A stretch of DNA of 56,177 nucleotides from Rickettsiales bacterium (GCA_028688645.1 JAQTXT010000001.1:1-56177), one strand, 5' to 3'. Positions 6,876 to 38,312 are shown, counted from the stretch's first letter. Notes: generated by a model not told the origin, from the letters alone. Made by a program: numbers and translations.

Positions 6876-7110
6876 TAGACCTATTGCATAAATAATTTTT
6901 CCACAAAAAATAATTTATACAAAAAAAGACGAAGATATTTCAAAATTGTTAGCAGAAACAGTATACTTATATATTTCGTTGTTAAAAATTTTGAAATTCT
7001 GAAGGATTTTGAAGTAGAAATTAAATTTTTGTGGAAAATATTATAAAACTTCCCATACTCAGATGTCTTTTTTCCATTGAAAAATTTCAAATTATTATGC
7101 AACAGGTCTA
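6876..7110. mobile_element. MITE-like palindromic element, copy B (235 bp, carries a nested insertion of about 78 bp)
   Basis: It has the same termini and internal blocks as 2411-2566 and the same orientation. An extra segment at about 6948-7025 carries its own inverted copy of atttcaaaat. The 73-aa ORF at 6881-7102 (-) lies wholly inside the element and is judged spurious. Confidence 0.75.
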
Positions 7111-7117
7111 TTATCGT

Positions 7118-8860
7118 TTATAATCTTTCTTTTTCCTTGTTAGCCTCAGTTTCTTCTCTTCTTCTTTTTATTTTTGGTTCTATACTTGTTGTTTCTACAA
7201 TCTTCATATCATCAGATTTTTGACGCATTAAAGCTTCCCCTACTCTTGTTCTAACTAAACCTCTAGTTTCTTGTCGATATTCACTTATAGAGCCAATTTG
7301 TGGAGATGGGGCAATAAATTTTGGAACTTTAATAACTCGTTTTATAATCGGAAGAATTTTTTCAGGCATTATTGTAAAATCATCTCCAGGCAATATAAGC
7401 GAAAATCTACTATCAATTTCATGTAATTTTTTAAAAATAACGGGTAAATTTGCTTCATCACTTATTTTTTTTAGTTCATCTATAAATATTCTTCTATTTT
7501 CTTTCGTACCCAGCCTTTTTCTTATGTTAGGACACATACTAATTAAAAAATCTATTATATACTTATCTTTAGGATTAACCATAATAGCATTTCTCGTTTG
7601 TGCAGCAAGACGCTCAAAATAACATGCTTGCAAGGCTATATAATATTGCCCATTAAATATTTCACTTTTTGGATTTATACAATGAGGAAAACCTATTTCA
7701 TCTCCCAATAATCCAAAAGCCATATGAAGTGGAAGAGGTTTTTTTAAATTTTGCGCAATTAAATGAAGAGCATAAAAACTAACCTTTGTTCCCTCATTAT
7801 TTATGTCATCCCACATTGCTTGTAAAATTTCAATAGGGATATTTGGATTTTGTACAAGCCCGCAAACAACATTAGGATTAATCATCATTTTATTATTCCA
7901 TATAGCTTGTAAAATTTCAACAGGAGTACTTGAATTTTTTATAAGTTGTTCAATAAATTCTAAATTATCTCTTATGTTTTTCACATTTATCTCATTCCAC
8001 ATTGCTTGTAAAATTTCAATAGGGATATTTGGATTTTGTGCAAGTCTAAAGATAATAACAGATCTAACTCCTTTTTCTTTTGTATTTTTCTCACCCCATA
8101 TCATCTGTAAAATTTTAACAGGAGTATTCAGATTTTTAGCAATTTCACATAAAACAGCAGAATTAACTTTTGTCCCTTCTGTATTTCTTTCATCCCACAT
8201 TGCTTGTAAAATATTAACAGGAGTTTTTGTATTTCCAGCAATTTCACATAAAACAGCAGAATTAACTTTTGTCCCTTCTGTATTTTTTTCATCCCACATT
8301 GCTTGTAAAATATCTATAGGAGTATTTGGATTTCCAGCAATTTTACATAAAACAGCAGAATCAACCTTTGTTCCTTCTTTATTTCTTTCATCCCACATTG
8401 CTTGCAAAATATTAATAGGAATATTCTTATTATGCGCAAGCCCATAAATAACATGAGAATCAACCTTTGTTCCTTCTGTATTTCTTTCATCCCACATTGC
8501 TTGTAAAATATCTATAGGGGTATTTGGATTTCTAGCAATTTCACATAAAACATCAAAATTAACCTTTGTTCCTTCTGTATTTCTTTCATCCCACATTGCT
8601 TGTAAAATATCTATAGGGGTATTTGGATTTCTAGCAAAATAACACAAAGTGCTAAGAAATATAACTTTTCTTTTATTTTCTTCAATCCAAATTTCTCTCA
8701 AAACTTCAGTAGGAGTATTCTGATTTATTATAAGTAAAATTAAAATATCGTGATTAAGTTTTTCATTTTTCCACATTGCCCTCAATATTCTAGGAGGAGT
8801 GTACGCATCTCTAGCTAGGACTTCGAATGAAAATCTTTTATATAACAAATCAATATCCAT
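7118..8860 (-). CDS. Tandem-repeat protein (eleven 33-aa NPNTPxxILQAMW repeats) with an unknown C-terminal domain
   Basis: 580 aa. The repeat unit is ..NPNTPIDILQAMWDERNTEGTKVxSAVLCEIA.. and is reminiscent of leucine-rich-repeat-variant / HEAT-like helical repeats. The last 200 aa or so are unrelated to the repeats. Confidence 0.85.
   Translation of the reverse strand: MDIDLLYKRFSFEVLARDAYTPPRILRAMWKNEKLNHDILILLIINQNTPTEVLREIWIEENKRKVIFLSTLCYFARNPNTPIDILQAMWDERNTEGTKVNFDVLCEIARNPNTPIDILQAMWDERNTEGTKVDSHVIYGLAHNKNIPINILQAMWDERNKEGTKVDSAVLCKIAGNPNTPIDILQAMWDEKNTEGTKVNSAVLCEIAGNTKTPVNILQAMWDERNTEGTKVNSAVLCEIAKNLNTPVKILQMIWGEKNTKEKGVRSVIIFRLAQNPNIPIEILQAMWNEINVKNIRDNLEFIEQLIKNSSTPVEILQAIWNNKMMINPNVVCGLVQNPNIPIEILQAMWDDINNEGTKVSFYALHLIAQNLKKPLPLHMAFGLLGDEIGFPHCINPKSEIFNGQYYIALQACYFERLAAQTRNAIMVNPKDKYIIDFLISMCPNIRKRLGTKENRRIFIDELKKISDEANLPVIFKKLHEIDSRFSLILPGDDFTIMPEKILPIIKRVIKVPKFIAPSPQIGSISEYRQETRGLVRTRVGEALMRQKSDDMKIVETTSIEPKIKRRREETEANKEKERL
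7745..8815 (-). repeat. 99-bp in-frame tandem repeat array (about 11 units; near-identical core about 8132-8635)
   Basis: The string cctttgttccttctgtatttctttcatcccacattgcttgtaaaatatctataggggtatttggatttctagcaa recurs exactly 99 bp apart, for example at 8464 and 8563. Confidence 0.9.
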
Positions 8861-20548: not shown

Positions 20549-21307
20549 ATGGAAACAATTTTAAGTAGAAAACAAATTATAATCGATATAATTAGTGGAA
20601 ATACAACGCAAAGAAAAAGATGGGATTTATCTGGACTTGATTTAAGAGAATTAGATTTATCAGATCTAGACTTGAGCGGTGTTATTCTTTTTAATGCTAA
20701 AATTGATAGAACCTGTGTAGAAAAAATCATGAATGGACAAATTAAAGGAATAGAAAAAGGAAATTTATCTGAATTTGATTTAAGTGGATTAGATTTATCA
20801 AATATGGATCTTTCAAAAGCTAATTTAACTAAAGCTGATTTAAGTGCTACTAATCTGACCGAAGTCAATCTAACTGGAGCTAATCTAGAAGTAGCAAATT
20901 TAACTATGGCTAACTTAACTATGGCAAATTTGACTATGACGAACTTAACTATGGCAAATTTGACTAAAGCTAATTTAACTAAAGCTAATTTAACTAGAGC
21001 TAATTTGACAAGAGCTAATCTTTACGACACTATTTTAATCAGAGCTCATTTAATCAAAACTATATTTGCTGACAACGATATGACTGGAGCTGATCTAAGT
21101 GAAGCTATTTTAATTAAAGTTGATTTAAGTAAAATCAATCTAAGAAGAACTATTATCAGTTTTAACTGGGTCGATAGCCAAACAGGAACACCGCCTAGAA
21201 GTAGTATTATAAGTATAGGTCAACAAACCTCACCTAAACTAAAAATTTTTTCTTTACAACATAGATCCAAAAAAATACCAACAAAAACTATATATTCAAC
21301 TCTATAG
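20549..21307 (+). CDS. Pentapeptide-repeat protein
   Basis: 252 aa. There is a long run of A(N/D)L(T/S)x pentapeptides (ANLTKANLTRANL...). The C-terminus is a basic tail. Confidence 0.85.
   Translation: METILSRKQIIIDIISGNTTQRKRWDLSGLDLRELDLSDLDLSGVILFNAKIDRTCVEKIMNGQIKGIEKGNLSEFDLSGLDLSNMDLSKANLTKADLSATNLTEVNLTGANLEVANLTMANLTMANLTMTNLTMANLTKANLTKANLTRANLTRANLYDTILIRAHLIKTIFADNDMTGADLSEAILIKVDLSKINLRRTIISFNWVDSQTGTPPRSSIISIGQQTSPKLKIFSLQHRSKKIPTKTIYSTL
20894..21022 (+). repeat. 15-bp in-frame tandem repeats encoding ANLT(M/K/R)
   Basis: Units such as gcaaatttaactatg, gctaacttaactatg and gcaaatttgactatg repeat about 8-9 times. Confidence 0.85.
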
Positions 21308-26844: not shown

Positions 26845-29262
26845 CTACTTATCCCTAAGCACTCCGCCCAGTTTCTCAGTAATATCCTTAATTATCTTAT
26901 TACTAATACCGTCAATCTCCTCACCATTCAAAGTCCTCTCAGTTGGTTGAAGTTTGATTGAAAAAGCAATGGACTTTTTGCCTTCTTCCATATTTTTTCC
27001 TTGATAAATGTCAAAAATATGAACTTCTTTAATCAATTCTTTGCTAACCTTTTTTACTGTATCTATAACCTTTCCTACTTCAACATCGCAATCCAAAATA
27101 AATGCAAAATCTCGTGAAACATTCTGTAAATCGTTTATAATATATTTTTTCTTTTGGGTCGCTTTCTGTTCTTTTTGTTTTGGGATATTATCTAAAAATA
27201 ACTCAAAGGCATTAACTTTATTTTTCAATCCTAAAATGTTGGTTTTCAATGGATGAATTTCACCAAACGAACCTAAAAATATATTTCCCATCTTAATTGC
27301 ACCACTTCTTGCAGGGTGGTAATAGTCTGGAACATCGTTTGTGATAGTCAAAGCATCAGCGGAAATACCAAAAATTCGTAAAACATCAAATAAATCTTTC
27401 TTCACATCGAAAATGTCATAGGCTCTTGATGAACTGAATACATCTTTTTCGCAAGTTGTACCTGTTCTAATACCACCTATAACTCTTTTTTGTCCCTCTG
27501 GCATTAAGCTCATGAACACCCTACTCTTCTCAAAAATACAAATATTTGCAGTTCCTCTGTCTTGATTGTTTTTCGCAATAGTTAACAAATTTGGTATAAT
27601 ACTTGGTTTCATATATGATAAATCAGCAGTGATTGGATTTTTTACTCTTAATTTTTCGTTGATTGGGGCAAATTCCTTTGCTACATCTTCTTTCATGAAA
27701 CTCCAGCTGATAATCTCAGTCATACCGTTTGCAGCAAGCAATAAACCAGCGTCCCATAACTTTTTATTTAGATTTCTATTTTCTGTTTGTTCTTGAGTTT
27801 CACTAATTTTTTCATTATTTATTTTGATTTCTTTCAAATTATCATAACCATAAACTCTAATAATATCTTCAATAACCGTTTCCTTTACAGAAATATCGGG
27901 TCGCCAAGTTGGTAAGGTCAAAATTAAAATATTCAAATCTTTTACATCCTCTTCGACACCATAACCAAGATTTTTTAATATCTCTATAATCTTTTGTCTT
28001 TCAATTTTTAATCCCAAAAACAATTCAACACAAGAAATTGGGAAATTCATAATTCTTAAATTTTCATCATAAGAGTTTGAAATTACCCTAACTATTTCAC
28101 TACTTTCACCACCGCAAATAGTCTGTATTAAGTATGTAGCATAATTCAAAGCCAATTCAGTAGTAGTTTGGTCAATACCTCTTTCAAATCTAAACTTCGC
28201 ATCAGTGATTATATTTAAAGCCCTAGCTGTCCTTGCAATATTTAATGGGTCAAAAACAGCACACTCTAAAACAACATTTGTAGTTTTATCAGAGCTTGCA
28301 CTTTTTTCACCGCCAATAATACCACCTAAACCTAAAATACTATTTGTATCACAAATTAAAGTCGCATTTTGTGGCATAATATATTCAATCTTATCTAGTG
28401 CTAAAAACTTTTCACCACCATTGGCTTTTTTAACAACTAAATTACCATTTATTTTATCTGCATCATAACAATGTAAAGGTCTGTTAAGCACCAACATCAC
28501 ATAATTAGTTATATCAACTAAGGCGCTTTTTGGATTAATTCCAACGGCTTTTAATCTTTGTTTTATCCAATCAGGAGATTCACAATTCTTAATTCCTTTA
28601 ATATATCTTAAAGTAAACTCAGGACAATTTTCGTCTTGAATTTCAACTCTAAATGGACTTGGAATTACAGACTTAATTTCGTGATTTTTAAATTCTCTCA
28701 ATTTTCCAATACTAGTAGCACTTAAATCTCTCGCAATACCATAAACACCCAAACAATGGGCGGTGTTTTGCAATAAATTCAAATCTATCATTGGATCGTT
28801 TAATCCATAAATATCAGCAACATTTTTTCCTAATTCAATTTCACTTGATAATTCAATAATCCCAGAGTGGTCTTCACCTAATCCGAGTTCCTTTTCAGAA
28901 CAAAGCATACCACAACTTTCAACACCACGAATTTTACTTTTTTTAATCTCAAAATCACCACTTGGTATAATACTTCCCACAGGTGCAAGTACAGCTTTCA
29001 TTCCACTTTTGGCATTAGGAGCACCACAAACAATTTGCAGAATTTCTCCATCCACTTTTTTAACTTTGCAAATATGTAAATGGTCAGAATCTAGGTGGTT
29101 ATTACACTCAATTACTTCAACACAATTAAAATCTTTAAACTTTTTACTATCATCAACAACAACATCAACTTCTAATCCAATTTGATCCAACTTATTCAAT
29201 ATTTCAGAGCAATTAGCTTGAGTATCTAAATATTCTTTCAACCAACTTAAAGTGAACTTCAT
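26845..29262 (-). CDS. pheT: Phenylalanine--tRNA ligase beta subunit
   Basis: 805 aa. MKFTLSWLKEYL is the canonical PheT N-terminus. tRNA-binding, B3/4, B5 and FDX-ACB-like regions are present in order. Confidence 0.95.
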   Translation of the reverse strand: MKFTLSWLKEYLDTQANCSEILNKLDQIGLEVDVVVDDSKKFKDFNCVEVIECNNHLDSDHLHICKVKKVDGEILQIVCGAPNAKSGMKAVLAPVGSIIPSGDFEIKKSKIRGVESCGMLCSEKELGLGEDHSGIIELSSEIELGKNVADIYGLNDPMIDLNLLQNTAHCLGVYGIARDLSATSIGKLREFKNHEIKSVIPSPFRVEIQDENCPEFTLRYIKGIKNCESPDWIKQRLKAVGINPKSALVDITNYVMLVLNRPLHCYDADKINGNLVVKKANGGEKFLALDKIEYIMPQNATLICDTNSILGLGGIIGGEKSASSDKTTNVVLECAVFDPLNIARTARALNIITDAKFRFERGIDQTTTELALNYATYLIQTICGGESSEIVRVISNSYDENLRIMNFPISCVELFLGLKIERQKIIEILKNLGYGVEEDVKDLNILILTLPTWRPDISVKETVIEDIIRVYGYDNLKEIKINNEKISETQEQTENRNLNKKLWDAGLLLAANGMTEIISWSFMKEDVAKEFAPINEKLRVKNPITADLSYMKPSIIPNLLTIAKNNQDRGTANICIFEKSRVFMSLMPEGQKRVIGGIRTGTTCEKDVFSSSRAYDIFDVKKDLFDVLRIFGISADALTITNDVPDYYHPARSGAIKMGNIFLGSFGEIHPLKTNILGLKNKVNAFELFLDNIPKQKEQKATQKKKYIINDLQNVSRDFAFILDCDVEVGKVIDTVKKVSKELIKEVHIFDIYQGKNMEEGKKSIAFSIKLQPTERTLNGEEIDGISNKIIKDITEKLGGVLRDK

Positions 29263-29361
29263 TCCAACAAACAGTTATAATATCTTGTTAAATACTATGA
29301 ATTTATTTTTTTTAATCAAGATATTTAATTGACAAATAAAAGCGAATAATTAACAATTGAT

Positions 29362-29540
29362 TTGCCCGTATGGGCAGCGGCATAAGAAACCGAATAAAGC
29401 TTTTAAAACCTCTCTTTTGTTTTTATAACATAAAGCGGAGGCTTATAGTTATAATGAGTTGTTTACAACTCAAAAGGCTGTAAGGGCTGAGCTTTATCAG
29501 TTTTCTTAACCTCCGCACTTTATTTTAAAGTGCGATTTTT
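29362..29540 (+). ncRNA. Structured leader or sRNA candidate, copy 1 (ends in a terminator-like hairpin just upstream of a small ORF)
   Basis: - Possible promoter: TTGACA at 29329-29334 and AACAAT at 29351-29356.
- Hairpin TGCCC-GTAT-GGGCA, 29362-29375.
- GCGGAGG (29434-29440) pairs with CCTCCGC (29509-29515). This stem encloses hairpin GAGTTG-TTTA-CAACTC (29455-29470) and a conserved block at 29472-29501.
- CGCACTTT / AAAGTGCG + ATTTTTA, 29513-29540.
- GC is visibly higher than in the flanks, and a homologous copy lies at 34247-34431 (-). Confidence 0.5.
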
Positions 29541-29564
29541 ATTAATAATAAAAAAGGTAAAGAA

Positions 29565-29873
29565 ATGATGACAGAAAAACTAAAAGAACCTAACAAACAA
29601 CTAAACGAAAAAATAGAAAAGAAAAAAGATGATATTAGTGTAAAAGATGAAATAGAACTAATTGAAAGAAAAATATTAAAAGAAGAATTAATTCAACTTG
29701 AAATAAAAGCTATTAAATATTATGTGAATAATAATCTTAACAATAGATGTGATTTAATGAATTTGTATAAATTATCAAAGTATATACGAGGAACTCATAA
29801 GAAAAATAAATCAAATAAAACTATGATTGAAAGAGTTGAAAATTTGTTAGAAAGTGTAGCGAAGAAAAACTAA
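29565..29873 (+). CDS. Small lysine-rich hypothetical protein (paralog of 33921-34226)
   Basis: 102 aa. A purine-rich aaaaaggtaaagaa sequence precedes the ATG. It shares a segment with the other small ORF: I.KYYVNNNL.N..DLMNLYKLSKYI against IVMYFVANKLKSNDDIIRLREITDYMI. Both are preceded by the same structured RNA. Confidence 0.6.
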   Translation: MMTEKLKEPNKQLNEKIEKKKDDISVKDEIELIERKILKEELIQLEIKAIKYYVNNNLNNRCDLMNLYKLSKYIRGTHKKNKSNKTMIERVENLLESVAKKN

Positions 29874-29877
29874 CAAT

Positions 29878-30093
29878 TTGTAGCTCCCCTTTGCCCTTCG
29901 GGCATTTCCCCTCAAGGAGAGGAAAGATATTCTGGCTTGTTGAACTATCTTTTCTTAATCACTACTCGTAATCTTTCCCCTCCTTGAGAGCAAGCACAAA
30001 GCCGAACCGATAGCCGCTTGCAGACAATCGGCAGCTTGTCGTTCGGCAAAGTGCGACGGTGTCAAATGCCCGAAGGGCAAAGGGGAGCTACAA
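29878..30093. repeat. Relatively GC-rich 216-bp element bounded by perfect 30-bp inverted repeats (candidate structured RNA or palindromic mobile element)
   Basis: - Outer arms: ttgtagctcccctttgcccttcgggcattt (29878-29907) is the exact reverse complement of 30064-30093.
- Inner 18-bp stem: 29911-29928 with 29971-29988 (one mismatch).
- Third stem: gccgaac (30001-30007) with gttcggc (30041-30047).
- GC is clearly above local background. Confidence 0.85.
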
Positions 30094-30142
30094 CAAAATC
30101 TTAAATAAATACAAATAAGATTAAATATTCTAAATAACATAT

Positions 30143-30175
30143 AAAAAACCACCAGAAAATTAATCTAGTGGTTTT
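30143..30175 (-). terminator. Terminator hairpin downstream of the 30187-30720 gene
   Basis: Minus-strand aaaaccactag..ctggtggtttttt, a stem followed by a U-tract. Confidence 0.55.
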
Positions 30176-30186
30176 AAACTTAAAAT

Positions 30187-30720
30187 TTATTTTGATTTTA
30201 TAAGATTATCGATTTTCTTCTCAAGTTCATCAATTTTTTTAATGAGTTTTTCAATATCAGCCGAACTATTTCCACCAACCAAACCAGATAAAGAAAATTT
30301 AGCAACTTTTCTGTAGCTTTTCCAAACAAAAAATAACATCATTAATATTATAAATATAAATAAACCAGAGAAAATTATTGCATACATTATTATTTTATTC
30401 TTTAGTACAATAAGATTGTTGAACTCACTTTCTGCTCTATTAACTAACTTTTCACTTTTATCTATAATATTATTATTAATTCTATCACTAGCTTTTTTAA
30501 TTTCGGCATCAAATTTTTCTGTTATTTTTTGAAACTCTTTATCTACTTTTTTCATTAAATCATCTTGTGCTGATTTTGTAGCATCAGTCAAAGTTTTATT
30601 TATTGTATTACTGTCAAGATTTACTTTACCATTTTGACTGATTTTAATGTAATCATCAATGCCAGCATAACATACATTAGTTAAAAATAAAAAAGTAAAA
30701 ATATAAATTAATTTTTTCAT
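30187..30720 (-). CDS. Secreted or membrane-anchored coiled-coil protein (hypothetical)
   Basis: The preferred start is MKKLIYIFTFLFLTNVCYA (signal peptide) at 30720. There is a coiled-coil middle region and a C-terminal TM (IIMYAIIFSGLFIFIILMMLFFVW). The ORF track's longer start overlaps tatD. Confidence 0.65.
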   Translation of the reverse strand: MKKLIYIFTFLFLTNVCYAGIDDYIKISQNGKVNLDSNTINKTLTDATKSAQDDLMKKVDKEFQKITEKFDAEIKKASDRINNNIIDKSEKLVNRAESEFNNLIVLKNKIIMYAIIFSGLFIFIILMMLFFVWKSYRKVAKFSLSGLVGGNSSADIEKLIKKIDELEKKIDNLIKSK

Positions 30721-30721
30721 A

Positions 30722-31516
30722 TCAATTCTCCAATGGTTTAACTTTATTAAATAATTCAATAAAATTTTTAGTTGTATTACTTTGTATAATATTATAATCA
30801 AGTTTTAAAAAATCTACCAAATATTCTGCTATATTTTTTACATAAGCTGGCTGATTTATCTGTCCTCTAAATGGTGTAGGAGCTAAAAATGGTGAATCGG
30901 TCTCAAGCATGATTCTATTAAGTGGAACATCTTTTACAATATCCCTTAGTTCGTTAGCATTTTTAAAAGTAATAATTCCAGACAATGAAATAAAACCGCC
31001 TAAGTCAAGCCCAGTCCAGCACAATTCTTTTCCTGATGAAAAACAATGTAAAACAAATCTAAATTCACCATTTTTCATTTCGTTTTTTAATATATCTATC
31101 ATATCACTATCAGCATTCCTTGAGTGTATTACAAGTGGCAAACCAGTTTTTCTGCAAGCTTCAATATGAATTTCAAAATTTTTCTTTTGTTTGTCTTTAT
31201 CTATGGAATCTTCAGCATATTCTAAACCACTTTCTCCAAAAGCTATGACTTTTTCCTTTTTTGAGTATTCTAATAATAAATTTAAAGTATTGACTACATT
31301 TGTAATCATTGACGGATGAACACCTATTGTAGCATAAACATTTTCATATTTTTCTGTTACTTTAAAAACTTTATCAAATTCTTTAATTTCAGTGCTTATA
31401 TTATTAATAATTCTGACATTATTTTGATTGGCTTTATCTATAGCTTCAGAAATAAGAATTCCTTTTTCCTCTTCCAGCATATTCAAATGGCAATGGGAAT
31501 CCACTAAATAATTCAT
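30722..31516 (-). CDS. tatD: TatD-family metal-dependent hydrolase
   Basis: 264 aa. N-terminal DSHCHL, with the ..IHSRNA.., ..LHCFSG.. and ..LETDSPFL.. motifs. Confidence 0.9.
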   Translation of the reverse strand: MNYLVDSHCHLNMLEEEKGILISEAIDKANQNNVRIINNISTEIKEFDKVFKVTEKYENVYATIGVHPSMITNVVNTLNLLLEYSKKEKVIAFGESGLEYAEDSIDKDKQKKNFEIHIEACRKTGLPLVIHSRNADSDMIDILKNEMKNGEFRFVLHCFSSGKELCWTGLDLGGFISLSGIITFKNANELRDIVKDVPLNRIMLETDSPFLAPTPFRGQINQPAYVKNIAEYLVDFLKLDYNIIQSNTTKNFIELFNKVKPLEN

Positions 31517-31523
31517 AAATATC

Positions 31524-32372
31524 CTACTTTCTTAGCTTATTCTTGTTTTCCAAAGCATTTTGCATCATTAAAGCTCTTTCTTCTGCTTCTGCTTCATCTT
31601 CTTCTTCTTTGACATCAGCCTCTATTTTTTCAAGATTCAAAAACACAGAAATTGTATAAATTATAATAATATCATAAACAGAGAATGAAATTATATTTTT
31701 TGTTACATCATTTAAACCGATATTTAATTTAAAAATATAAGATATTAACGATCTTTCAGCAAAATATGTTAAACTACCAATAATCAATGTTAAAAACATG
31801 AATCTAAACAAATTTCCTTTGACAAGATTATAACTTCTGCTTAATGCATTGATACCATTCAATAATACTACTTCACTATTTTCTTTATTATTAACATCTC
31901 CTAATCCACACAAATAAATAGAAAAAAAATAATAAAATAAAAATAATATGCCTGGTAATATCAAAAATAATCCAAAAAAAGAAATTACCACCAAAAAGAA
32001 AATAGTCGTTCCACAAACAGGCAAAAATCTTTTAAAACTCATACCGAATGCTTCCATTAAACTACTTATTGTATTGTATTTTTGACTATATAATATATCG
32101 CTAAAAAATATAGATTTGAATACATATAAAATAAATATTGGCAGACCATAATATACAATATTAAATGTCGACACAGAAAATAGTCTACTTATTGTAAGCG
32201 TATAAGTGTTTACAAAAAAAATCTCAGTAATAACAAGGACTATAAGATTAAATGCAATTATATAAAAAATATTTTTCAAATAATACTTAAAAGTATCTTT
32301 TATATTTTTGAAAATTCCCAGTTTTGTATCAACTGTTGTCTTTTTTTTATGTTTTACTTTGTTTTTCGCCAT
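31524..32372 (-). CDS. Polytopic membrane protein with an acidic C-terminal tail (hypothetical)
   Basis: 282 aa, about 5-6 hydrophobic helices, and a basic N-terminus. No family was recognised. Confidence 0.65.
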   Translation of the reverse strand: MAKNKVKHKKKTTVDTKLGIFKNIKDTFKYYLKNIFYIIAFNLIVLVITEIFFVNTYTLTISRLFSVSTFNIVYYGLPIFILYVFKSIFFSDILYSQKYNTISSLMEAFGMSFKRFLPVCGTTIFFLVVISFFGLFLILPGILFLFYYFFSIYLCGLGDVNNKENSEVVLLNGINALSRSYNLVKGNLFRFMFLTLIIGSLTYFAERSLISYIFKLNIGLNDVTKNIISFSVYDIIIIYTISVFLNLEKIEADVKEEEDEAEAEERALMMQNALENKNKLRK

Positions 32373-32387
32373 AACCTTATTTTAAAA

Positions 32388-32879
32388 TTATTTGCAAAGA
32401 GATAACATCTCATTATATGCATCATTAAAACCAATTAAAGAATATGTATCAGTAGCTCTATTTCCAGCTTTAGAATAACTTAAAACATACATTTTTGCAC
32501 CAAGTTTCATTTGTTTTACAATTTCCACATCATCATTTCTATCATAAGTCCAAGCCTTTTCATCATTTGAAAATAATGGAAATTTTCTTTTTAAAATTGA
32601 TATTTCAATATCCTTATCTGGATCATATATAAAACCAGAACTTATACTGATTTCATCATATTGTGCTCCCTTTTCTCTCATAACTGTCGCATAAGGCTCA
32701 CCCCTTTTTTTATAATCACCTTCTATTTTAATTGGCAATGAAGCTATATAACAAATTTCCTTACCATTTTCAGTTGATTTAAACAATGTCCAACTTTTAT
32801 GTATAGATATAGGAGATGAAGCAAATGAGCTTACTGTAAAAATCATTAATAAGAATACAATCAATAATATTTTTTTCAT
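32388..32879 (-). CDS. Invasion-associated locus B (IalB)-like periplasmic protein
   Basis: Signal peptide, then W.LF......G...C... and a C-terminal ..YSLIGFNDAYNEMLSLC pattern typical of the IalB family. Confidence 0.55.
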   Translation of the reverse strand: MKKILLIVFLLMIFTVSSFASSPISIHKSWTLFKSTENGKEICYIASLPIKIEGDYKKRGEPYATVMREKGAQYDEISISSGFIYDPDKDIEISILKRKFPLFSNDEKAWTYDRNDDVEIVKQMKLGAKMYVLSYSKAGNRATDTYSLIGFNDAYNEMLSLCK

Positions 32880-32906
32880 AAATTATTCCTTTATGTTTAA
32901 CTTATT

Positions 32907-33317
32907 TTATTTCTGCTCTCCTTGATCTTTGGAATTTTTTAATTCTTTATGTGTTTGTGGGAATTTAACTTCATTTATTTTTTTTAATTCGCCTTCAATC
33001 TTTGCACCATCTTCAACACACAATGAAATATATTCCAATGTTCCTTTTATATCAGCTTGTTTAGCAATATTTATTCTTTCACTCTTAATTTTTCCATTGA
33101 ATTTTCCCTTCAAATTTAAAACTTTTGCTGTTATATTTCCTTGAACTTCACCCAATTCTCTTATTGTAATAACATTTCCAACAATATCACCTTCTATTTT
33201 ACCTTCAATATCTATAGTTTCTTCACAATTTAGTATACCATTAATAGAAAGTCCTGCCGAAATAACAGAAATACTATTTTTTGATAATATCATATCTTTT
33301 GTCAACATTAAAATCAC
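32907..33317 (-). CDS. Bactofilin-family cytoskeletal protein
   Basis: 136 aa. The repetitive beta-helix pattern (IEGKIEGDIVGN..VQGNITAK..KGKFNGKIKSE..IKGTLEY..IEGEL) is typical of bactofilins (DUF583). Confidence 0.8.
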   Translation of the reverse strand: MILMLTKDMILSKNSISVISAGLSINGILNCEETIDIEGKIEGDIVGNVITIRELGEVQGNITAKVLNLKGKFNGKIKSERINIAKQADIKGTLEYISLCVEDGAKIEGELKKINEVKFPQTHKELKNSKDQGEQK

Positions 33318-33498
33318 CCAAATCTTTTATTTATATAACTTGGTTGAATGATAAATAATAAAAAATTAATTTCAAGTCTTATCTTTTTTCAAACAAAAAA
33401 ATTTTTTTCTTGAAAATAAAATAAAAAGGAATAATCTACTTTCAGATATTCTTGGTACCCTCATATTAAGATTTATTAATAAATGAAAAGATTTAAAA

Positions 33499-33864
33499 AT
33501 GTCTACAAAAATTAGATTAGCAAGATTTGGAAGGAATAAAACTCCATTTTATCATATAGTTGTTACTGATTCTAGAAATAGAAGAGATAGCAAATTTATA
33601 GAAACCATTGGAACTTTTAACCCATTATTAGCTGATGATAGTAAAGATAAAATAGTTCTTAAAAAAGATAGAGCTGAATATTGGTTAAGTGTAGGTGCTG
33701 AACCTACAGAAAGAATGGCTATACTTATGATTAAGTTAGGCGTAAAGGGAGCAGACAAATACAAACCAGTATTTGTTCCAAAAGCTAAAGCTGTAAAGGT
33801 TGAAGAAACAAAAGCTGAAGAAGTTAAAGCTGAAGAGCCAAAAACTGAAGAACCACAAGCTTAA
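33499..33864 (+). CDS. rpsP: 30S ribosomal protein S16 with a Lys/Glu-rich C-terminal extension
   Basis: MSTKIRLARFGRNKTPFYHIVVTDSRNRRD.. is the canonical S16 N-terminus. Confidence 0.95.
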   Translation: MSTKIRLARFGRNKTPFYHIVVTDSRNRRDSKFIETIGTFNPLLADDSKDKIVLKKDRAEYWLSVGAEPTERMAILMIKLGVKGADKYKPVFVPKAKAVKVEETKAEEVKAEEPKTEEPQA

Positions 33865-33882
33865 TTGAGGTCTACAAAAAAT

Positions 33883-33910
33883 AAAATCCGTCATTTATTG
33901 GCGGATTTTT
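33883..33910 (+). terminator. Rho-independent terminator after rpsP
   Basis: aaaatccgtca-ttta-ttggcggattttt, about 20 nt after the rpsP stop. Confidence 0.65.
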
Positions 33911-33920
33911 GCTTGGAATT

Positions 33921-34226
33921 TTAGTCCATTGACACTTCTTCTAAAAATGTAATGAATAATTTATTTAATTTTTCTGTTATTAAATTTAATCTTTTTAACT
34001 TTACTTTCTTATTATATTTAATTCTGCAAGTTTTAATCATATAATCAGTTATTTCTCTTAATCTAATTATATCATCATTGCTTTTTAGTTTATTGGCAAC
34101 AAAATACATAACTATTTCTTTTTTAACTTTAAACATTTTCAAATTTATTGATTGATTTTCATCTAATTTTTCTTGGAGAATTTTATTTCTGTCCAATTTT
34201 TTTACTTTTTCAATCAGTTCTTCCAT
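33921..34226 (-). CDS. Small lysine-rich hypothetical protein (paralog of 29565-29873)
   Basis: 101 aa. aaaaaagaggtaaaaa precedes the ATG (minus strand). It has the same upstream structured RNA as the 29565 ORF. Confidence 0.6.
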   Translation of the reverse strand: MEELIEKVKKLDRNKILQEKLDENQSINLKMFKVKKEIVMYFVANKLKSNDDIIRLREITDYMIKTCRIKYNKKVKLKRLNLITEKLNKLFITFLEEVSMD

Positions 34227-34246
34227 TTTTTACCTCTTTTTTAATT

Positions 34247-34431
34247 AATAAAAAACGCACTTAAAAAAGTGCGGGGGTTAAAACAACTGACAAAGTTCAG
34301 CCCTTACAGCCTTTCAAGCTATAAAAAGCCTATTATAACCGCAAGCCTCCGCTATATAAATATAACGAAAGCCGACAGTCAATAGTAAAACTTTGTTTGA
34401 TGTTTTAAGCCATCACTCTTGCCCGCAGGCA
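34247..34431 (-). ncRNA. Structured leader or sRNA candidate, copy 2
   Basis: On the minus strand:
- TTGACA (34464-34459).
- Hairpin TGCC-TGCG-GGCA (34431-34420).
- GCGGAGG (34352-34346) pairs with CCCCCGC (34277-34271), with one mismatch.
- Hairpin AGGCT-TTTTAT-AGCTT (34331-34316) replaces the copy-1 hairpin at the same position.
- Conserved block 34314-34285.
- Terminator-like CGCACTT-TTTT-AAGTGCG + U-tract (34273-34247). Confidence 0.5.
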
Positions 34432-34468
34432 GTTTAATTTTTAAATGCTTGGTTTATTTGTCAACGAA

Positions 34469-35752
34469 TTATTTTTTCCCTTCCAGAAGTTTCATGCCAA
34501 CTTTATTAATCTTAACTTTTACAATTTTTCCAACTAAATCTTTATCTTCGCTTTCGACAACAACAGTTTGTAAATATGGACTTCTACCAAAATAACTACC
34601 ATCATTTTTATCGGATAAACTTTCAATAAGAATGTCCATAGTCTGTCCTAGTTTACTTTGATTAAATTCTGCTTGTTGTTTTTCAAGTAGCTTTTGTAAA
34701 ATATCAAGTCTTTCACTTTTCATTTTTTCATCTACTTGGTTCTGCATTTTTTCACCAGCAGTCCCAGGTCTAATACTATATTTGAATGAAAAAGTTGTTG
34801 CATAATTTACCTGTCTACACAATTCTAGTGTTTCCTCAAAATCTTTGTCTGTTTCACCAGCAAAGCCAACTATAAAATCAGAAGAAATCGCAATATCTGA
34901 CCTTGATTTTCTTAATTTTTTAACAACATTCAAATATTGTTCCACAGTATATTTTCTATTCATTGCTTTTAAAATTTTGTCAGAACCACTTTGAATTGGT
35001 AAATGAATAAAAGGCATAAGTTTTGTAATATCTCTATGAGCATCAATTAAATCTTGATTTACTTGACTTGGATAACTAGTCATATATCTAATTCTCTCAA
35101 TTCCCTCAATTTTTGATACTTTAAAAATTATATCAGCAAGCCCCTTTCCTTCAAACTTGTAATTATCAACATTTTGTCCTAAAAGTGTAATCTCCTTAAC
35201 TCCACCATCTCTCAAAACTTTAGCTTCATCAATAATTTGATTAAAATCCCTAGAATACTCTCTACCTCTTGTAAATGGAACAATACAATAAGAACAAAAT
35301 TTATCACAACCTTCTTGAACTGCAATTAATTCACTAACACCTTTAACAATTCTTGCTTGCGGCAAACTTTTAAACTTTTCTTCCGCTAAGAAATCTAATT
35401 TTACACCACTTTTTGCTCTAACAAGTTCTGGTAATTTATGATATGAAGCTGGTCCAACAATTATATCAACCATTTTCATTCTTTTTTTAATTTCATTAGC
35501 TGAAGTTTGTGCAACGCAACCAGCCACAACAACAACTGCCCTGCCCTTATTAAATTTTTTTATTCTTCCTAACTCTGAAAATATTTTTTCTTTAGCTTTT
35601 TCTCTAATACTGCAAGTATTTATAATGATTAAATCAGCATCATTCACATTCGTAGTTTCTTCATAACCATCATTTTTCATTATGTCAATCATTCTTGATG
35701 TATCATATACATTCATTTGACAGCCAAAACTCTTAGCAAAAACTTTTTTCAT
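34469..35752 (-). CDS. miaB: tRNA-2-methylthio-N6-dimethylallyladenosine synthase
   Basis: 427 aa. N-terminal FGCQMN, radical-SAM CDKFCSYCIVP, and a C-terminal TRAM-like domain. Confidence 0.93.
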   Translation of the reverse strand: MKKVFAKSFGCQMNVYDTSRMIDIMKNDGYEETTNVNDADLIIINTCSIREKAKEKIFSELGRIKKFNKGRAVVVVAGCVAQTSANEIKKRMKMVDIIVGPASYHKLPELVRAKSGVKLDFLAEEKFKSLPQARIVKGVSELIAVQEGCDKFCSYCIVPFTRGREYSRDFNQIIDEAKVLRDGGVKEITLLGQNVDNYKFEGKGLADIIFKVSKIEGIERIRYMTSYPSQVNQDLIDAHRDITKLMPFIHLPIQSGSDKILKAMNRKYTVEQYLNVVKKLRKSRSDIAISSDFIVGFAGETDKDFEETLELCRQVNYATTFSFKYSIRPGTAGEKMQNQVDEKMKSERLDILQKLLEKQQAEFNQSKLGQTMDILIESLSDKNDGSYFGRSPYLQTVVVESEDKDLVGKIVKVKINKVGMKLLEGKK

Positions 35753-37142: not shown

Positions 37143-38312
37143 CTACAAATCTAATAATTTTTTCTTCTCTTCATCACTCAAAAAATCAGCATTTGCAATT
37201 TTATTCCAATAACTTTCTTGCCTTGAAGAAAGAGCTGAAATTTTGTCTTTGTCATAATATAATTCAACATTCCCATCAAACATTGGAACTAACCAATTAT
37301 TTAAAGCCGTTAAAATATTATCAACCATTGGTAAAATTGTTTCTTCCCACATTGCCAATCTTGCCTCTGTCAAATTACTATAAGTATTATCACCTGGTAT
37401 TCCTAATAATTGAGATGGGACACCAAAAACCATTGCAATATCTCTAGCACAAGAATGTTTTGCATCTAAGAAATCCATATCCGCAGGACTTAAACTCATT
37501 TCTTTCCACTCTAAACCACCCTCTAATAACAATGGTTTGCCAGCATTTTCACTTCCAGAAAACTCTTCATTTAATTGTTTTTTTAATCTATCGAATTGTT
37601 CATCAGTTAAAAATGCGGAATTATCACCGTCACCTTTTACCATCAATGCTCCGCTTGGCTTTGCTCCATTTTGCAACATTGCCTGATTCCATTTTGAAGA
37701 TTCATTATGTTGATCTATAGCATAACTAGCAGCTTCAACAGGCGATAAACCATACCAATCATTAATTGGATTGAAATTTTTAATATGTAAAATCTCGGAT
37801 TTTCCAGTTAATTTATCCAGATAGAAAGTTGATTTTGTACTATTAACTTTATATTCATAAGCTATTGGAATACCAAAATTACCAGCTATTATACTAATTC
37901 TATCTGGTCTTAAAATGAATAATTCTTTTGGACTTTGGAAATTTTCGCTTCTTAAAAACACAGCCTTTACAAAACTATTCCCAGAAATTAATTTATAAGA
38001 ATATAATGATTCAAAAAATTCAATTCTGTTTTGTGTTGGATTTGGATTATTTAATAAATCAATTAGAGGGTGATTTTTAATTTCCTCATTAGTTTTTTTA
38101 TCATATAATAAAAACGAAATAGAACTGGCACTTCTCGCTAACATAGAAATACATTTATACCCAACAACATTTTTAATATAACCTTCTCTTGAAAACATCT
38201 CATAGTTTCTATCAGACCAAACTGCTTTTCCAAGTGGTTGATAATACGATTTAATTTCATTTATTCTTTTATCACTTTTCTTTTCTTTAAAAATATTTTT
38301 TATTATATTCAT
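37143..38312 (-). CDS. Phage portal protein, HK97 / RcGTA g3-like family (orphan)
   Basis: 389 aa. Length and motifs (..GNSF.., ..WYGLSPVEAA.., ..FGVPSQLLG..GDNTYSN..EAR..) are typical of HK97-family portals. No terminase, protease or capsid gene is adjacent. Confidence 0.8.
   Translation of the reverse strand: MNIIKNIFKEKKSDKRINEIKSYYQPLGKAVWSDRNYEMFSREGYIKNVVGYKCISMLARSASSISFLLYDKKTNEEIKNHPLIDLLNNPNPTQNRIEFFESLYSYKLISGNSFVKAVFLRSENFQSPKELFILRPDRISIIAGNFGIPIAYEYKVNSTKSTFYLDKLTGKSEILHIKNFNPINDWYGLSPVEAASYAIDQHNESSKWNQAMLQNGAKPSGALMVKGDGDNSAFLTDEQFDRLKKQLNEEFSGSENAGKPLLLEGGLEWKEMSLSPADMDFLDAKHSCARDIAMVFGVPSQLLGIPGDNTYSNLTEARLAMWEETILPMVDNILTALNNWLVPMFDGNVELYYDKDKISALSSRQESYWNKIANADFLSDEEKKKLLDL

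Follow-up and report, generated by a model that had tools for sequence, protein, structure and literature searches.

A putative riboswitch-like leader RNA present in multiple copies ahead of a family of small orphan proteins in Rickettsiales-like bacteria

The stretch of Rickettsiales bacterium DNA analyzed here (56,177 nt, referred to as the window) carries one cassette in two copies that are inverted to each other, at 34464-33921 on the minus strand (copy 2) and at 29329-29873 on the plus strand (copy 1). In both, a sigma-70-like promoter is followed by a leader RNA of about 185 nt with a terminator-like 3′ end, a Shine-Dalgarno sequence, and an open reading frame (ORF) of 101 or 102 aa. An earlier description made from the DNA alone (the sequence-only reading) had presented the minus-strand module as a mirror of the layout at 29329-29873, and every element that it listed was located on the minus strand.

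The gene preceding copy 2 is MiaB-like (domains UPF0004, Radical_SAM, and TRAM). Its stop codon ends at 34469, and the TTGACA hexamer of the cassette (34464-34459) lies 4 nt past it, not 5 nt as first stated. This hexamer, a 16-nt spacer, and AAAAAT make up the promoter (34437-34464; 10 of 12 matches in the consensus scan). The leader RNA of about 183 nt extends over 34250-34432 (covariance-model hit of 182 bits, E about 1e-45) and comprises, in order, a UNCG-type 5′ hairpin, helices P0, P1, P2, and P3/P3a, and the terminator. The 5′-terminal hairpin UGCC-UGCG-GGCA, already noted at the DNA level, occupies 34431-34420. The strings that the sequence-only reading had found shared between the copies are likewise present: AGCGGAGGCTT and GTTATAAT at 34353-34332, and the 30-nt core AAAGGCTGTAAGGGCTGAACTTTGTCAGTT at 34314-34285. 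GCGGAGG (34346-34352), with GTTATAAT immediately 3′ of it, provides the 3′ strand of P2 and also the 5′ strand of a candidate antiterminator. The segment CCCCCGC (34271-34277), which reads CCUCCGC in all other copies, complements GCGGAGG with one A.C mismatch and shares 3 nt with the terminator stem. The predicted intrinsic terminator CGCACUU-UUUU-AAGUGCG plus U6 (34250-34273; stem 34273-34256) was recovered by the terminator scan with seven pairs, four of them GC, followed by a T-run; it is the terminator-like hairpin seen earlier. Downstream lie, again as first described, a ribosome-binding region (GAGGU, 34236-34232) and the 101-aa ORF (34226-33921; PHY80_00140), which encodes a basic orphan protein with three predicted helices.

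Copy 1 adjoins pheT and has the same parts on the plus strand. Its promoter (29329-29357) consists of TTGACA, a 17-nt spacer, and AACAAT, also with 10 of 12 consensus matches. The leader RNA (29358-29540; covariance-model hit of 153 bits) contains the 5′ hairpin (29363-29376), GCGGAGG (29435-29441), CCUCCGC (29510-29516), and a predicted terminator with U-run (29514-29534, terminator scan), and is followed by an ORF of 102 aa (29565-29873) that belongs to subfamily A of the same protein family as the ORF of copy 2. The two copies align over about 260 nt with a mean column identity of 84%, and they also emerged from the repeat analysis as inverted repeats I1 and I2. The window contains exactly two instances each of the 30-nt core pattern and of a 22-nt core pattern, whereas 100 shuffles contained none. 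When the full 56-kb window was searched with the covariance model and all filters off, only the two copies were returned (182 and 153 bits), the next best hit scoring 13 bits. Promoter-like and terminator-like sites were found at matching positions in both copies. No tRNA or tmRNA was detected in the window.

Related cassettes were collected from genome and metagenome sequences. In total, 16 intact leaders and several decayed ones were obtained, all from a few AT-rich Rickettsiales-like MAGs or metagenome contigs. The source Rickettsiales bacterium MAG (locus tags PHY80_), of which the window is one complete contig, contains at least five family genes and the relative MAG CAZBNS01 (AT-rich, labelled Rhizobiaceae, GC about 30%) about ten. 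A scan of the genome collection with an 18-nt core gave seven further copies, all in CAZBNS01; the other 11 hits lacked flanking leader features and are consistent with chance. Four more loci came from a metagenome scan with a second motif. Loci reached by protein search alone (L020, L037, L038, L040, L041, and L042/L043) carry the leader wherever upstream sequence exists. An open family ORF follows 15 of the 16 intact leaders, the ORF of L016 running off the end of the locus.

The position of the leader in the window is that of a 5′ UTR, between promoter and ORF, with the transcription start site inferred, and other copies with downstream sequence are alike. Direct reading of the sequences shows that the TTGACA/−10 pair keeps its distance to the 5′ hairpin in other copies. 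The predicted terminators, with stems of 7-9 bp and four GC pairs followed by a T-run, are kept in all intact copies. In 10 of 11 measurable copies, 22-24 nt separate the terminator from the start codon, which leaves no room for a separate ORF promoter; the spacing is longer only where an extra hairpin has been inserted between terminator and Shine-Dalgarno sequence (L031 and L016, leader at 176-374 in the latter).

Cassettes sit amid unrelated housekeeping genes and always point into a family ORF. Using tblastn with six neighbors from the window, including PheT, MiaB, S16, and TatD, we found none that adjoins cassettes at other loci; the cassettes thus occupy different places in different genomes. 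Searches of viral, plasmid, and phage collections gave no cassette match. That the RNA occurs in just a few related MAGs, and there with a single paralogous protein family, fits duplication of whole cassettes. Copies that lack an ORF, which the sequence-only reading had proposed to look for as a sign of a plain dispersed repeat, do exist, but they are truncated or interrupted remnants, together with one intact leader beside a pseudogenized ORF. The remnants comprise (i) L035:516-692, where the 3′ half of the terminator is lost and a GC-rich palindrome follows; (ii) a 5′-truncated copy in L032 that has kept its terminator but has no ORF, with a new copy directly after it; and (iii) L019:7359-7538, with promoter and 5′ hairpin only. 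The intact leader is that of L031 (3454-3646; 198 bits), whose ORF is dead (stop after 16 codons), a hint that the RNA may be useful in itself.

Folding of the single copies gave z-scores of −5.2 (copy 1) and −6.1 (copy 2) relative to shuffled sequences. On a plain MAFFT alignment of 13 leaders, RNAalifold predicted 48 pairs, 15 of them with compensatory changes. For covariation counts, we used a model-based alignment of 14 leaders, with 500 shuffles and slid pairing partners as controls. Standard pairs fill 98.4% of the pair cells in this alignment, as compared with 35-46% in the slid controls. Compensatory double changes were found in 23 of 51 pairs, whereas the shuffles had 11.8 ± 1.7 (none of the 500 reached the observed count) and the slid controls 3-8. 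Two long-range helices, P0 and P1, close the domain. Covariation extends to all six pairs of P1, each of which occurs in up to four pair types, and the 5′ hairpin (helix 1) shows double changes in all three pairs. P3 carries an internal loop (UAUAA/AAA) and is accompanied by the variable hairpin P3a. This hairpin corresponds to the interval between GTTATAAT and AAAGGCTG, where the two window copies had been noticed to form different hairpins at the same position; with 18 leaders, six of its seven pairs show double changes. The unpaired core (GUUAUAAU, AAAGG, GGGCUGA, and UCAGUU) is nearly invariant. As the leader helices have been kept through many compensating mutations, the RNA is probably a genetic switch.

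No match to the 4227 families of Rfam 15 was found in the whole window at gathering thresholds. When E-values up to 10 were allowed for 29000-34800, only opposite-strand matches to the terminator hairpin appeared, far below threshold. In a literature search, the motif was nowhere described, and no paper on the source samples was found. On sequence evidence, the leader is a previously undescribed RNA family, probably of a known regulatory kind.

Several parts of the leader can pair in more than one way. Palt, a 3-bp hairpin around the 5′ strand of P0, covaries among leaders (UGG/CCA, CGG/CCG, GGG/CCC, and GAG/CUC), one of its pairs being UA in seven, CG in three, and GC in two leaders, and the next pair being AU once. 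Judged by loop lengths of 2 nt and 0 nt, Palt and P0 could together form an H-type pseudoknot. The segments CUGA and UCAG flank the 3′ strand of P1 and form a local hairpin; in the divergent L037/L038 lineage CUGA...UCAG is replaced by UCGA...UCGA, which amounts to two compensatory changes. This hairpin and P1 are mutually exclusive because they have one nucleotide in common and no linker is left. An extension of P2 was also noted, in which CUGCAGG upstream of P2 is able to pair with the 5′ strand of P3 (modest support; pair 59-104 is CG in 12 and UA in two leaders).

The candidate antiterminator involves GCGGAGG, which is invariant in 18 of 18 leaders and is the exact complement of CCUCCGC. 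Pair 98-175 of this helix is AU in 17 of the 18 leaders, the exception being the A.C mismatch of copy 2. CCUCCGC shares three nucleotides (CGC) with the terminator stem. GCGGAGG is fixed while its partner strand in P2 varies, which implies a second constraint on it. As both strands are invariant, the GCGGAGG:CCUCCGC helix shows no covariation, its basis being complementarity and conservation. RNAalifold on the full-length alignment returned P0, P1, P2, and the terminator. With the alignment cut before the 3′ strand of the terminator, it returned Palt, GCGGAGG:CCUCCGC, P3/P3a, and the CUGA/UCAG hairpin. In single-sequence models, the candidate antiterminator fold is 12-20 kcal/mol worse than the minimum free energy (MFE) structure; at the decision point, the single-sequence MFE pairs 5′ AAAGUG..GG with CC..CACUUU instead.

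Other candidate elements were rejected. The P0 extension AAAGUG:CACUUU is a weaker antiterminator candidate: its 5′ side varies without keeping the pairing, and its GG:CC pairs draw on the 5′ strand of Palt, where GAG in L028 keeps Palt but would break the pairing with the invariant CC. A leader peptide is not indicated, AUG following GGAGG in just 7 of 18 leaders and the short frames differing. An internal promoter at GTTATAAT would have a poor −35 region of variable sequence; the conserved internal loop of P3 explains the motif better. A K-turn (box C/D-like UGAUG plus CUGA) was discarded, the UGAUG part being unconserved in copy 1.

On reading the sequences, we also noted that ACUGAU recurs around codons 3-5 of many family ORFs, e.g. 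at 34218-34213 in the window. It occupies two reading frames, encoding T-D in subfamily A and L-I/M in subfamily B. As ACUGAU complements the leader segment UCAGU, the start of the coding region may join the RNA structure.

The ORFs behind the leaders form a family of their own. The similarity between the two window ORFs that the sequence-only reading had pointed out is non-significant in pairwise comparison (BLASTP E = 0.33) but holds at the profile level, where subfamilies A and B were aligned by hhalign with E = 3.4e-6 and a probability of 88% over 62 columns that cover the segment noted earlier; it is also recovered via intermediates. Judged by this profile comparison, the two ORFs are homologous members of one orphan family. 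A profile search of 5.8 billion proteins gave 24 family clusters only, all hypothetical, and an exhaustive HMMER search of 1.84 billion representatives at 50% identity gave 16 family members. The ORFs are 88-122 aa in length, with one variant of 138 aa (L035). AlphaFold2 predicts three helices (pLDDT 78), with the same prediction for both window ORFs, and the family proteins are basic (median pI 9.5, net charge +7). In the six computable pairs, dN/dS was 0.13-0.27, which marks the family ORFs as real genes under purifying selection. Pfam, PADLOC, PHROGs, NCBIfam, and PDB sequences contained no significant match to the family proteins, and a Foldseek search of the PDB and BFVD libraries likewise returned no significant fold match. 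At one related locus (L043:2331-2630), a public 99-aa gene call overlaps the leader RNA (2430-2621) and is probably a spurious ORF prediction.

Leader and ORF differ in how fast they diverge. Between L007 and L014, the leader differs at 5% of positions and the adjacent ORF at 51% of synonymous sites. Across ORF subfamilies in CAZBNS01, leaders are 77-82% identical and proteins 25-35% identical. Conservation of the leader far above that of the coding regions is due either to strong selection across the entire leader or to a degree of concerted evolution; as copies from the same genome show compensatory differences, homogenization alone is insufficient.

Taking these results together, we consider the leader to be, on balance, probably a new cis-acting, riboswitch-like transcription attenuator. 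Transcription would start a few nucleotides past the −10 element, at the stable UNCG-type 5′ hairpin, and the leader would then adopt either a terminator or a read-through fold. In the terminator fold, P0 and P1 would close a junction bearing hairpins P2 and P3/P3a; CCUCCGCACUU would thereby be freed to make the intrinsic terminator, and RNA polymerase would halt before the ribosome-binding site. In the read-through fold, the local hairpins Palt (around the 5′ strand of P0) and CUGA/UCAG (around the 3′ strand of P1) would form, and GCGGAGG would leave P2 to pair with CCUCCGC. The terminator stem would thereby lose its three basal G/C pairs, and the small basic helical protein would be made. 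Candidate signals for shifting the balance between the folds are small molecules or ions, a shared cellular factor, and the family proteins themselves. Regulated termination, which of the folds is induced, and the nature of the input are all points that we infer from sequence. This model retains the leader-plus-ORF module of the sequence-only reading, which did not yet include P0 and P1, the alternative pairings, or the finding that the cassette is multi-copy and lineage-restricted.

The attenuator reading accommodates the cassette layout, the covarying stems, the invariant junction, the terminator, and both supported folds better than its rivals do. The leader shares with known riboswitch and attenuator leaders the site in the 5′ UTR, a junction of several helices whose stems covary freely while its unpaired nucleotides are invariant, a predicted terminator directly downstream, a segment complementary to the 5′ side of the terminator, and, by prediction, two exclusive folds. 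Known metabolite riboswitches are usually widespread and control the genes of one pathway, whereas here the only gene that would be regulated is an orphan and so points to no ligand. In contrast to established leaders of this kind, the present RNA falls into none of the Rfam families, is confined to few related MAGs, and occurs in 5-10 copies per genome, all before one orphan paralogous family. The link to a single protein family is reminiscent of ribosomal-protein and other autoregulatory leaders, in which one leader type is likewise tied to one small basic protein family in a narrow lineage. On this model, the basic family proteins may bind the conserved junction of their own leader and of those of their paralogues and so set termination or read-through, an alternative that would retain the switch mechanism and name its input. 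The strict and reciprocal association of leader and protein family speaks for it, as do the basic character of the proteins, the purifying selection on them, and the lack of any metabolic gene linked to the leader. We nevertheless regard autoregulation as unlikely. The paralogues are about 20-30% identical, yet the unpaired core of the leader is invariant, and the different divergence of leaders and proteins within one MAG does not suggest cognate pairs. Moreover, the family proteins match no known RNA-binding domain or fold, and they belong to many paralogous copies rather than to one operon. A basic pI is, in addition, normal for proteins of AT-rich genomes.

It is about equally doubtful that the cassette produces a stand-alone small RNA of about 185 nt, with 5-10 siblings per genome, that works in trans or, in type III fashion, as partner or antidote to the downstream protein, the ORF then being expressed only by leaky read-through. 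The order of promoter, non-coding RNA, Rho-independent terminator, and protein gene, as well as the presence of several copies, does resemble type III toxin-antitoxin systems (toxIN, cptIN, and tenpIN), and sibling small RNAs would likewise comprise several similar structured RNAs per genome, all of which have a promoter and a terminator to themselves. Thermodynamic models give the terminator fold as the ground state of every copy, the 5′ hairpin fits a stabilized RNA end, L031 has an intact leader by a dead ORF, and L032 a terminated partial RNA with no ORF. However, the remaining ORF-less copies are themselves truncated or interrupted, and each cassette is fused to an ORF at a fixed short distance. 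Unlike in type III antitoxin RNAs, Tandem Repeats Finder detected no array within 29358-29540 or 34250-34432. The protein is an all-helical one of about 100 aa that matches no ToxN, AbiQ, CptN, or TenpN model, other defence family, or nuclease fold. Covarying alternative helices and an invariant complement to the terminator base are, furthermore, what a switch predicts, not a static RNA. Two other explanations do without a regulatory RNA switch altogether. A conserved promoter and 5′ UTR, homogenized by gene conversion between paralogues and structured for mRNA stability or constitutive damping, would account for the similarity of leaders within CAZBNS01 and between L007 and L014 (95% identical), both of which fit concerted evolution. 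But homogenization cannot create compensatory changes, P0, P1, and P3a differ within the same genome with pairing kept, and two mutually exclusive helix sets are both conserved, so we hold this explanation to be very improbable. That the cassette is a non-functional dispersed DNA repeat (a MITE or palindromic element) lying beside small ORFs by chance is hardly credible, even though decayed copies exist and GC-rich palindromic elements, frequent in these genomes, occur close to several cassettes. The cassette lacks terminal inverted repeats and keeps a constant orientation and spacing relative to the ORF, its similarity begins exactly at the −35 hexamer, covariation is massive, and plasmid, phage, and viral collections contain no match. 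The sequence-only reading had already argued for a functional RNA rather than a DNA repeat, and none of the three tests that it named against itself (protein similarity, consensus fold against shuffled controls, and ORF-less copies) overturned the idea.

To our knowledge, very few regulatory RNAs have been described from the small genomes of Rickettsiales and their uncultured relatives. The cassette adds a statistically strong structured RNA outside every curated family, and some comparative support for both of two alternative folds is unusual for a candidate from so few genomes. Its unusual traits are the multiple copies, the restriction to one lineage, and the tie to a single orphan protein family. 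The leader controls, or at least accompanies, an expanded orphan family to which a visible share of the lineage-specific genes belongs. Once found, the trigger would give a handle on the role of the protein and on what these organisms sense, and would add a new architecture among bacterial RNA switches. Going further than attenuation as such, we suggest only tentatively that the cassette represents a new riboswitch class (aptamer plus expression platform) or, equally novel, a new kind of RNA-protein module. As a riboswitch class, it would respond to some small molecule or ion that matters to the lifestyle of these uncultured Rickettsiales-like bacteria and would govern a co-ordinated regulon of 5-10 paralogous small basic proteins. 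As an RNA-protein module, it would consist of parts unrelated to type III toxin-antitoxin systems but would, as they do, use its terminator to set the RNA:protein ratio.

Several other repeats were observed in the window. A GC-rich palindromic element of 216 nt (29878-30093) begins 5 nt past the stop of the copy 1 ORF; it has perfect terminal inverted repeats of 30 nt, folds at −112.9 kcal/mol (z = −11.9), and looks like a MITE or a repeat akin to Rickettsia palindromic elements. Its end motif GTAGCTCCCCTTTG recurs in L007, L019, L035, and L039, and a palindromic element lies just 3′ of a family ORF in three cases (copy 1 of the window, L035, and L039). GC-rich palindromes also interrupt or replace parts of decayed leaders (L035:700-1140, L019:7400-7500, and L032:230-300), so that such elements seem to insert into or beside cassettes. 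A second repeated element at 2411-2570 and 6876-7114 (families D4, D8, and D19; copies 79-97% identical) has the inverted termini TAGACCTGTTGCATAAATAAT ... ATTATTTATGCAACAGGTCTA. A tandem array of about eight 99-nt units at 7733-8661 and a 15-nt periodic array at 20588-21156, which together account for families D1-D3 and D5, both look intra-coding, the latter resembling pentapeptide repeats. Finally, a phage portal protein gene (PF04860, E = 2e-81) is located on the minus strand at 37143-38312, about 2.7 kb from copy 2, which suggests that a prophage or a region resembling a gene transfer agent may lie nearby.
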